A DNA stretch of 64,000 nucleotides from Trypanosoma brucei (taxonomy: Eukaryota). Position numbers and translations under genes: made by a program. This document shows positions 53,081-55,631 of the stretch, in pieces; within the stretch, counting starts at the first letter, position 1, and every line of letters begins with the position of its first letter. The notes under the pieces are model-generated. The model made no database searches. It saw only the letters and a list, made by a program, of their open reading frames with translations, and was not told the origin of the DNA. The stretch spans positions 1,632,001 to 1,696,000 of the forward strand of contig CP000071.1 in assembly GCA_000002445.1 (NCBI GenBank), written 5' to 3'.

Positions 53081-54187
53081 ATGCACCGCGGACCGCCGGC
53101 ACTTCTGCATACTGTAGGCGTCGCGACACGGAGCAAATCATTCGCAGCGAGTACGAAACTACCAGGGAGATTAACACCTCTCCCGTCGACATCTTCCACG
53201 CTCCAGCCTACCAACACTTTACTGTCCTCTTCAGCGGGAATAGCCTCTCTGCGCCAGCTCGTCAGCGCCTCTACACTAACCAGCACTTCAACAAGCGGCA
53301 AGAAACGTGTCGGGTCACTGGATGCTCACTGTCGTCTCCTCTCAAGAGGAACCTCAGCCGATAGTTACATGCCAATGACGTCACGCTCTTTCGATGTTTT
53401 TGAAGGTAACAACAAGCAGGCATGGCTGGATCTCAAAACTGGCTGGTGCCATCTCTGCCAAGAACCACTAGGTGCGACAATGGGTGTCCATATTGGCGAC
53501 CGTGATCACACTAATCTACAGTATTTTCTGTTTCTCTACGCAGCTCATGGGCGTCGATGGTCAAGTGAGGAGGTTCTTCGTTCCTGTCTCGCCACCGCTC
53601 CGACGGTGCACAACTACGCGACAAGGCACACAACGTGGGACCACTTGCATGTCATGGACGACGCGCTGCGTCGCGCTGAGTTGGAGGCGCTTCTTTTCCA
53701 TCTGACACACCCACCACAACAGGCCCTGTCGCACGTGCTTCAGGGTCGCAGCCCACTGGGATTTTGGTACAGTGGAGAACGTATGTGGAAGTTGCGTATC
53801 TCGCGCCTCGTCACGCAGGTGTTTCCCCCCATCTCTGCGGGGATGATGACAAACTTCACACAGAAGTGCTGGGGTCGTAGTAACGGCGAAAGGATGTATG
53901 ATGCCTTAAGGTTGCAACGAATAAAGGCTTACTATGGCTGGCAACCGTACGAAAGTAAGGAGAAGAAAGCCTTTTTCGTGCGGCAACTGCTGTGGGAGCT
54001 GCTTTCCGTGGAGGTACGTGACGAGGTAGATGAATTAACAAAACACATGGCGGATCTTGCGCTACGGCGTATGGCGTTTGAGATGATCTTCTTGCAGTCA
54101 ATGGAATACATGCATAAGGTACAATATGTGTACGATTTGATGGGGAGACCCACTGTGGATGAACTTGCAGCAATGAATTTGCTGTAG
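53081..54187 (+). CDS. U1/matrin-type C2H2 zinc-finger protein, tandem paralog 1
   Basis: '[26 protein letters not shown]' fits C-x2-C-x12-H-x4/5-H. Shares collinear blocks with the downstream gene ('YFLFLYAA', '[10 protein letters not shown]', '[20 protein letters not shown]'). N-terminus '[21 protein letters not shown]' is presequence-like. Confidence 0.55.
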
Positions 54188-54434
54188 GATGTGGGGCAAA
54201 ACGCCGCTGCGGCAGGCAGTGGTGAACGGATGAAACAGAACCACGGGGCTTGTAAGTTTACACGTGTAACATCCCATAACTTCTCCACTGGGGTTGCGTG
54301 TCTCACTATTCATATCTGTGTACAGTAACGTTCACGCCAACGCGTGCCACGGGTAAGCTTTCCTTCCTTTTATTTTAGTCTCCTTTATTATCAGCCATTG
54401 GATCGTGTCCGTGTGAGATTGATAACGAAATGCG

Positions 54435-55631
54435 ATGATGTACCGGTGGAGCCCCCCGTCACTCTCCAAAAAGGTGAAGGGAGATACATTTCTCTCTTCG
54501 CTGGCACAAAGGGTCGACAGTGTTGCTGCTACATCATCTTCTCGGCAGGAACCGGGAGGGACGCTGAGTAACTTGCGTTTGGGGTTGCGCGGAAGCAGTA
54601 CGATGTGCCGGAGCGCCTTTTCACTTCACTCCAACCAGAGTTTGGTGGGAAATCGTATATTTGAATGTCCAAACAAACATATTTTCTTGGATACTAATGC
54701 TTCCTATTGCCATTTGTGCCGCGAGCCGCTCGGAGTTTCTTCATTCACACATCTCTCTGACCGGGAGCATCACAATGTCCAGTTATTTCTCTTTCTATCC
54801 GCAGCATTCCCCCGCGGTACACTTCGTGACGCAACCGATCTATCAACGACTTTTGCAAAAACCACCTGGAGGGCGATTGGCAGAGGCGACAACACGGCAG
54901 GGGAATCAATCCTGTATCATCCGGATGAGGTGATGGATGACGCTGCCCGGTTCTGTCCTCGTCTTTTGGCCGCCGTGAAGGGTGGTTATGCACATACAGA
55001 ACAGGAGGCCCTACGCCGCGCCAGTCTGCAATCCATGCTTATTCTACTCAGTAGCGGGTCGATCACCTCGGACGGTGCCACTCGACGGGAACCGGCGGTA
55101 CTAGGAGTATTTCATGGTGATGTTTTACCTGAGTTGGCGCACAGCGGTGAACGACTTTTCAAGGGGGAGGTGTCACGTCTCATTGTGGAATGGTTCCCCG
55201 CGTTAAGTGCAGGAGTGGGCACACAGATAGCACACAAGTGCTGGGGCCGCTCTAATCTGGAGAGTGTTTTTGATGCCCTTCAGTTACAAACCCTAATAAA
55301 TCAGCGGTGCAACAGGGCAGCGGTGCGGGGGTCGGGGTCGGGGTGGAAAAGCACCTTGATGAAGGGACTTACAACTAAAACGGAGAAGGCAACATTTATG
55401 CGACTTCTGATGTGGGAGCTAACCACACGAAATGAAGATGTAGGTGGAGATACCAACGATGGCGTGTCTTTAAATAAAGTGGACCGCTTGCTTCTGGAGC
55501 TGACGAGGAAGCGACTTGCATTCGAGATGGTTTATCTCCAATCACTGAAGTACATGCATTTGGCGGATGCCCTTCTACAGGAGATGTCTTACCCATCCTT
55601 GGAAGATTTGGTATTAATAGGCGCAGCGTGA
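54435..55631 (+). CDS. U1/matrin-type C2H2 zinc-finger protein, tandem paralog 2
   Basis: 'YCHLCREPLGVSSFTHLSDREHHNVQ' has the same finger spacing. Collinear blocks 'LFLFLSAA', 'KCWGRSNLES', 'LTRKRLAFEMVYLQSLKYMH' match paralog 1 at roughly 30-35% identity by eye. Confidence 0.55.
   Translation: MMYRWSPPSLSKKVKGDTFLSSLAQRVDSVAATSSSRQEPGGTLSNLRLGLRGSSTMCRSAFSLHSNQSLVGNRIFECPNKHIFLDTNASYCHLCREPLGVSSFTHLSDREHHNVQLFLFLSAAFPRGTLRDATDLSTTFAKTTWRAIGRGDNTAGESILYHPDEVMDDAARFCPRLLAAVKGGYAHTEQEALRRASLQSMLILLSSGSITSDGATRREPAVLGVFHGDVLPELAHSGERLFKGEVSRLIVEWFPALSAGVGTQIAHKCWGRSNLESVFDALQLQTLINQRCNRAAVRGSGSGWKSTLMKGLTTKTEKATFMRLLMWELTTRNEDVGGDTNDGVSLNKVDRLLLELTRKRLAFEMVYLQSLKYMHLADALLQEMSYPSLEDLVLIGAA

Follow-up and report, generated by a model that had tools for sequence, protein, structure and literature searches.

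Two adjacent genes on Trypanosoma brucei chromosome 8 encode the RNA-editing proteins KREPB8 and KREPB10, a diverged pair of duplicates

Results

The tandem genes are KREPB8 and KREPB10

A stretch of 64,000 nucleotides of Trypanosoma brucei DNA (contig CP000071.1, positions 1,632,001 to 1,696,000 of the forward strand; hereafter the window, with coordinates counted from its first letter) contains two adjacent open reading frames (ORFs) on the + strand, ORF1 and ORF2, which are KREPB8 and KREPB10, the known tandem pair of RNA-editing genes on T. brucei chromosome 8. An initial annotation made from the sequence had placed two genes of 368 and 398 amino acids (aa) here, and their coordinates and lengths in the window are exactly as given there:

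53081-54187, + strand: KREPB8 gene (ORF1; Tb927.8.5690; TbMP41), 368 aa and stop, assigned by phmmer against the PDB
54188-54434, + strand: KREPB8-KREPB10 intergenic spacer of 247 bp, read directly from the sequence
54435-55631, + strand: KREPB10 gene (ORF2; Tb927.8.5700), 398 aa and stop, assigned by identity to the TREU927 protein

The phmmer search matched ORF1 to chain B of PDB entry 9dei (9dei_B, 'KREPB8; RNA editing catalytic complex core protein, B8') with E=1.2e-253 and 367 of the 368 residues identical. The sole difference lies at residue 11 (codon 53111-53113), which is Thr in the window and Asn in the PDB chain, presumably a strain polymorphism. ORF1 is also 100% identical to a Trypanozoon entry named 'KREPB8 [Trypanosoma equiperdum]' (P0008), and ORF2 has 100% identity to a TREU927 protein of T. 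brucei brucei (P0001) named 'hypothetical protein, conserved', the name under which KREPB10 still stands in public protein records. A 2026 review gives the two genes the consecutive IDs Tb927.8.5690 and Tb927.8.5700 (PMC12936278), and Carnes et al. 2018 describe them as adjacent duplication products on chromosome 8 (PMC5770545). The residues mutated in published KREPB8 variants (G232, I336, L319, L204, R58, M99, T175 and L368) all match the numbering of ORF1, and the published KREPB10 mutant residue G238 is Gly at position 238 of ORF2. Taken together, the identity to named proteins, the consecutive IDs and the matching mutant positions identify the pair as KREPB8 and the editosome accessory factor KREPB10, the latter with no difference and, as published, directly downstream of KREPB8. 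Nothing contradicts this identification, and we are highly confident of the overall explanation, which joins it with the domain architecture, the duplication and a place for KREPB10 as an accessory factor beside KREN1.

The pair had been suggested to act in mitochondrial RNA processing, and this is borne out: ORF1 is KREPB8 of the solved RNA editing catalytic complex 1 (RECC1; 9dei_B) and ORF2 is KREPB10. A reading of the raw sequence alone had picked out a real pair of RNA-editing genes that experiments had already characterised. The pair, its adjacency, duplication origin, domains, editing role and phenotypes were already published between 2012 and 2026; possibly unpublished are only two details described below, the move of KREPB10 in the T. 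cruzi clade and its threefold higher rate than that of KREPB8. Identity, paralogy, domain architecture and fold, phylogenetic distribution and relative rates come from this analysis, while complex membership, KREN1 pairing, essentiality and mutant phenotypes are taken from the literature; the competition or substitution mechanism of KREPB10 and the timing of the duplication are what we infer.

KREPB8 and KREPB10 are clearly paralogous: BLASTP aligned ORF1 and ORF2 with E=4e-46 and 116/381 identities (30%), collinear over almost their full length and significant well past the short motifs that had first suggested the relationship. A passage in McDermott et al. 2019 gives 32% identity and credits the duplication to Lerch et al. 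2012 (PMC6800513). The shared blocks listed in the initial annotation were all found in both ORFs: the zinc-finger block CHLC(Q/R)EPLG...H...DR(D/E)H at residues 123-143 of ORF1 and 92-112 of ORF2, KCWGRSN at residues 262-268 and 268-274, and R(R/K)(M/L)AFEM(I/V)(F/Y)LQS(M/L)(E/K)YMH at residues 329-345 and 358-375, respectively; the block noted as 'LFLFL' reads YFLFLY in ORF1 and LFLFLS in ORF2. Both genes are intact and constrained, and neither is a pseudogene. An old local duplication followed by functional divergence, as had been proposed, is supported by this alignment and by the duplication stated in PMC5770545 and PMC6800513.

Within the 247-bp spacer, an AG comes after a polypyrimidine tract (54358-54390) and presumably serves KREPB10 as its trans-splice acceptor; given how trypanosome polycistronic units are generally built, the spacer should also hold the KREPB8 polyadenylation region. 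The window has 17 ORFs of 250 aa or more, every one of them on the + strand, and its GC skew is positive throughout, which fits a trypanosomatid polycistronic unit. Shorter ORFs of 100-193 aa overlap KREPB8, one in another frame (52783-53364, + strand) and one on the opposite strand (53856-54306, - strand). The 193-aa one spans the would-be 5' untranslated region and the start region of KREPB8. Nothing suggests that these are genes.

Both proteins carry an invariant C2H2 zinc finger

The zinc fingers of KREPB8 and KREPB10 share the spacing C-x2-C-x10-H-x5-H:

53447-53509, + strand: KREPB8 C2H2 zinc finger (C123, C126, H137, H143), from the translation; ligands invariant in the alignment
54708-54770, + strand: KREPB10 C2H2 zinc finger CHLCREPLGVSSFTHLSDREH (C92, C95, H106, H112), from the translation and the alignment

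We aligned 28 sequences (5 KREPB10 and 23 KREPB8 orthologues; residues in ORF2 numbering). The zinc ligands C92, C95, H106 and H112 are invariant in 28/28 sequences, as are G238-E239, K268-C269-W270, R272, N274 and E364. In an AlphaFold2 model of ORF2 the zinc-finger segment has a predicted local distance difference test score (pLDDT) of about 89.

The initial annotation had called the fingers U1/matrin-type. A C2H2 finger with four invariant ligands is indeed present, but the family label is only descriptive: Pfam-A hmmscan with both proteins at E<=10 returned 0 families, and no zinc-finger model (zf-U1, zf-met or relatives) matched. Since Pfam finds nothing, the calls of both the zinc finger and the RNase III domain rest on structure and literature. 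The field labels the finger a U1-like zinc finger (PMC5770545, PMC9508840) and likens it to U1C, which stabilises the duplex of pre-mRNA and U1 small nuclear RNA (PMC9508840). U1C and matrin-type proteins are alike in having a single C2H2 finger in a protein that handles RNA duplexes, and unlike in the C-x2-C-x10-H-x5-H spacing and the lack of a Pfam match in KREPB8 and KREPB10; the comparison is one of analogy. A published prediction puts the zinc fingers of KREN1 and KREPB8 on either side of the RNA at the active site (PMC9508840).

A degenerate RNase III domain and a RAM helix make up most of each protein

The bulk of each protein is an RNase III fold with a RAM helix, and the zinc finger is a small portion of it:

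53642-54136, + strand: KREPB8 degenerate, non-catalytic RNase III domain and RAM helix, from alignment, translation and literature
53756-53779, + strand: KREPB8 signature-motif remnant LGFWYSG232E, from the translation
53864-53884, + strand: KREPB8 KCWGRSN, from the translation
54065-54115, + strand: KREPB8 RAM block, from the translation
54987-55616, + strand: KREPB10 degenerate RNase III domain and RAM helix
55128-55151, + strand: KREPB10 signature remnant PELAHSG238E, from the translation
55236-55256, + strand: KREPB10 KCWGRSN, from the translation
55506-55559, + strand: KREPB10 RAM block RKRLAFEMVYLQSLKYMH, from the translation

The AlphaFold2 model of ORF2, which was built from the 28-sequence alignment, has a mean pLDDT of 73.5, with the zinc finger and the helical core mostly above 85 and a helix at residues 348-383 (the RAM) at 90-95. 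Foldseek matched this model to 9dei_B with E=7e-12 and a template modelling (TM) score of 0.79. The pair had been described simply as zinc-finger proteins; the finger stands, but the RNase III fold had been missed, and the KCWGRSN and AFEM...YMH blocks lie within it. Of the two, KCWGRSN is part of the RNase III domain and AFEM...YMH corresponds to the RAM, which was defined in 2022 via the KREPB8 mutations L319F and I336F (PMC9508840). The 'WGR' in KCWGRSN was once taken for a WGR motif and was later called spurious (Carnes et al., PMC5770545).

Both proteins combine the features of the KREPB family, namely the C2H2 motif, the RNase III fold, a kept structural Gly with lost carboxylates, and the RAM helix. 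The canonical RNase III signature motif is (E/D)(R/K)LE(F/Y)LGD. When anchored on the conserved Gly as in the alignments of PMC5770545 and PMC6800513, it reads LGFWYSGE in KREPB8 and PELAHSGE in KREPB10, and the two upstream glutamates are missing. The dimerisation-critical glycine (G232 in KREPB8, G238 in KREPB10) is invariant, while the catalytic carboxylates are lost. The catalytic residues are kept in KREN1-3 and degenerate in KREPB4-10 (PMC5770545). Because the upstream catalytic glutamates are gone, KREPB8 and KREPB10 are pseudoenzymes, as published. Unlike the catalytic RNase III proteins (bacterial RNase III, Dicer, Drosha and KREN1-3), which keep the signature carboxylates, they have a degenerate signature, no double-stranded RNA-binding domain and no match to the Pfam profiles Ribonuclease_3 or Ribonucleas_3_3 at E<=10, and act as pseudoenzymes. 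KREPB6, KREPB7, KREPB4 and KREPB5, the other editosome proteins with a zinc finger and a pseudo-RNase III domain, are far more distant in sequence, are encoded elsewhere, and pair with KREN2 and KREN3 or make up the common core.

The N-terminus of ORF1, which had been noted as presequence-like, is so in composition: R/K, S/T, A and L abound, and the first 80 residues include 9 K/R, 28 S/T and none that is acidic, which would be compatible with a mitochondrial presequence. KREPB8 and KREPB10 are both nuclear-encoded mitochondrial proteins, in each of which an N-terminal targeting or low-complexity region is followed by a U1-like C2H2 finger, then a degenerate RNase III domain, and at the C-terminus a long RAM helix.

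KREPB8 is the inactive partner of KREN1

The association of KREPB8 with the RNA editing catalytic complex rests on PDB 9dei, in which KREPB8 (chain B of RECC1) is found together with KREN1, MP90, MP44 and MP46. KREN1/KREPB8 is one of three heterodimeric endonucleases, each with a single catalytic RNase III domain, and RECC1, which contains KREN1, carries out uridine (U) deletion. KREPB8 is essential in both life-cycle stages (PMC6800513). The KREPB8 mutations G232R/V are lethal and disrupt KREN1 pairing; mutation of G232 also destabilises KREN1 in bloodstream forms and abolishes the co-isolation of KREN1 (PMC6800513). The RNase III domain of KREPB8 heterodimerises with that of KREN1 to form a single active site, which cuts the mRNA strand of the mRNA/guide RNA duplex at U-deletion sites in RECC1; only the mRNA strand is cleaved because only one RNase III domain of the heterodimer is catalytic. 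KREPB8 also stabilises KREN1, and its zinc finger has been proposed to contact the RNA duplex.

KREPB10 was found only in Trypanosoma and appears to have moved in the T. cruzi clade

We read the synteny from orthologue loci in six species, with the following gene orders:

T. brucei (window): pyridoxal-dependent (PLP) decarboxylase-like gene, KREPB8, KREPB10, FHA gene, TRM5/TYW2-like gene
T. melophagium: KREPB8, KREPB10, FHA gene
T. vivax: KREPB8, FHA gene (1162-bp spacer)
T. conorhini: KREPB8, FHA gene (447-bp spacer)
Leishmania donovani: KREPB8, FHA gene
Leptomonas pyrrhocoris: KREPB8, FHA gene

The genes are in tandem in T. brucei and T. melophagium, and KREPB8 stands alone at the site in T. 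vivax, T. conorhini, L. donovani and Leptomonas. A search of the KREPB8-FHA spacers of these last four species for KREPB10 remnants, with profile hidden Markov models (HMMs) against six-frame translations, gave no match better than E=0.1. The absence of KREPB10 from Leishmania and T. vivax is already stated in passages of PMC5770545 and PMC3540409 (the latter citing Lerch 2012).

In T. cruzi Sylvio (L005:189-4441) and T. conorhini (L007:565-4197), KREPB10 was found away from KREPB8, upstream of an ankyrin/alpha-beta-hydrolase gene in both, on short contigs (4.6 and 5.3 kb). At the KREPB8 locus of T. conorhini (L006:1517-6499) the FHA gene directly follows KREPB8, and KREPB10 is on a different contig. 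KREPB10 appears to be relocated in the T. cruzi clade, because in both species it is found on other contigs, a qualification of the published wording 'syntenic in most trypanosomatids'. Between KREPB10 and the ankyrin/hydrolase gene of T. cruzi (L005:1496-2393) lie broken pieces of a TRM5/TYW2-like methyltransferase, a homologue of the gene at 61582-63138 of the window, two genes downstream of KREPB10. These pieces may be what the rearrangement left behind when KREPB10 moved. No such fragment is present at the T. conorhini KREPB10 locus.

A profile search of 1.84 billion representative proteins returned 97 relatives. The KREPB10-like ones all came from Trypanosoma, one of them a fragment from T. 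grayi, and T. brucei KREPB9 could not be recognised in the set. About 15-20 environmental proteins from metagenomes and Logan (P0073-P0089) scored 140-230 bits with the KREPB8 HMM, between the KREPB8 orthologues and the KREPB6/KREPB7-like matches, and may be KREPB8-like paralogs of free-living kinetoplastids, as judged from these scores.

KREPB10 evolves about three times faster than KREPB8

Within Trypanosoma, orthologues of KREPB8 share 78-85% identity and those of KREPB10 only 53-75%; identity of the KREPB8 orthologues to those of Leishmaniinae is 53-56%. For the same species pairs, the nonsynonymous substitution rate (dN) was 0.11-0.17 for KREPB8 versus 0.30-0.39 for KREPB10. The synonymous rate (dS) was saturated in all pairs except T. 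cruzi-T. conorhini for KREPB10 (and marginally T. brucei-T. cruzi), so we report only dN ratios and a single dN/dS ratio (omega), which is about 0.22-0.24 for KREPB10 between T. cruzi and T. conorhini. KREPB10 is thus a fast-evolving (about 3 times KREPB8) yet constrained gene under purifying selection, and no pseudogene. A direct dN/dS of KREPB8 versus KREPB10 was dropped as meaningless at 30% identity.

KREPB10 is 31-35% identical to every KREPB8 orthologue, from Trypanosoma and Leishmaniinae alike; dating the duplication with a tree was also dropped, since this equidistance leaves no usable signal. From presence/absence and synteny, a duplication in the Trypanosoma stem lineage is the most parsimonious. 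We propose that KREPB10 would have been born there from a local duplication of KREPB8 and would then have evolved about three times faster into a non-essential accessory factor.

KREPB10 probably competes with or substitutes for KREPB8

KREPB10 is non-essential in bloodstream and procyclic forms. It is seldom detected in editosome preparations (PMC6800513). Its association with editosomes has been shown via tagging, gradients and immunoprecipitation, and the KREPB10 mutations G238R/V weaken its association with ~20S editosomes (PMC5770545). KREPB10 cross-links to KREN1, KREL1, KREPB4 and KREPB5, and is found in KREN1 complexes mainly upon KREPB8 repression (PMC5770545). MEAT1 complexes contain KREPB10 and lack KREPB8 and KREX1. 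Without KREPB10, bloodstream forms lose edited CYb, and in procyclic forms edited A6, RPS12, ND3 and COII become more abundant (PMC5770545).

Its presence in KREN1 complexes upon KREPB8 repression and in KREPB8-free MEAT1 complexes suggests that KREPB10 probably competes with or substitutes for KREPB8. We propose that KREPB10 would dock on editosomes via the same RNase III dimerisation surface, most probably replacing KREPB8 beside KREN1 and in MEAT1-containing editosome-like complexes, and would so modulate the extent of editing of particular mRNAs across life-cycle stages. The pair is a textbook case of enzyme and pseudoenzyme evolution, in which the inactive RNase III copy KREPB8 limits KREN1 to cutting one strand and the further duplicate KREPB10 appears to modulate the KREN1-KREPB8 partnership. 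More tentatively, KREPB10 could be a lineage-restricted, fast-evolving swap-in pseudoenzyme that displaces KREPB8 from KREN1 and fills the equivalent place in MEAT1 complexes, re-tuning stage-specific cutting at deletion sites, with the loss of the gene from T. vivax and its move in the T. cruzi clade tracking differences in life cycle or editing load; we regard this extended form as possible and rather doubtful. The swap-in idea has already been voiced as a hypothesis in the literature, and only the comparative-genomic detail would be new here.

The overall explanation has several weak points. For the molecular role of KREPB10, an effect on RNA stability instead of cleavage has been proposed in the literature; neither protein's zinc finger nor its RNase III domain is recognised by Pfam; and sequence by itself, with KREPB10 equidistant from all KREPB8 orthologues, cannot choose a duplication in the Trypanosoma stem over an earlier origin with loss in Leishmaniinae.

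According to the stability proposal, KREPB10 mainly affects edited-mRNA stability, for example via short A-tails, and not the choice of endonuclease partner. It was raised by Carnes et al. 2018 with the observation that only edited mRNAs rise upon KREPB10 knock-down (PMC5770545), and we consider it unlikely as the main role of KREPB10.

It is very improbable that KREPB10 is a redundant duplicate that drifts to loss with no function of its own. Its dispensability in both forms, its scarcity in editosome preparations, its threefold higher dN and the lack of the gene or a remnant at the syntenic site of T. vivax would all agree with such a drift. However, five species (T. brucei, T. congolense, T. 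cruzi, T. conorhini and T. melophagium) have an intact ORF and T. grayi has a fragment, omega is low, no variation is seen at the zinc ligands, G238 or the RAM residues, and loss of KREPB10 alters specific edited mRNAs in each form as described above.

The least probable alternative, which the initial annotation had raised, is a KREPB8-KREPB10 heterodimer in which the two inactive domains would pair: dimerisation is obligate for RNase III domains, G232/G238 and the RAM helix are kept in both proteins, and a review has KREPB10 associating with all RECC proteins except KREPB6 and KREPB7, which leaves room for KREPB8, but the partner of KREPB8 is KREN1 in both structure and genetics (PDB 9dei; PMC6800513), the reported cross-links of KREPB10 do not include KREPB8, KREPB10 detection in KREN1 complexes goes up when KREPB8 is repressed (PMC5770545), MEAT1 complexes hold KREPB10 and no KREPB8, KREPB8 works in T. 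vivax and Leishmania where KREPB10 is absent, and KREPB8 is essential while KREPB10 is dispensable.

Neighbouring genes

Upstream of KREPB8, the window encodes a 614-aa pyridoxal-dependent-decarboxylase-like protein (50701-52545; PF00282, E=9e-22, partial profile coverage). This gene holds the same position in T. vivax and was not found upstream of KREPB8 in T. melophagium (about 10 kb searched) or T. conorhini (about 1.5 kb, to the contig end). In T. conorhini, Leishmania and Leptomonas, the gene ahead of KREPB8 belongs to the EBP family.

Downstream of KREPB10 lies the gene of an FHA-domain protein (56410-59349; PF00498, residues 85-164). As called, this ORF begins at TTG and runs through a (TG)n-derived CVCVCVCV stretch and a Phe run. 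The true start is probably the Met of 'MHIIEVNHG', because orthologues align only from about residue 51-62. Elsewhere in the window, a 4810-aa ORF (12049-26481) with VPS13 N-terminal and VPS13 adaptor-binding domains encodes a VPS13-like bulk lipid-transfer protein.

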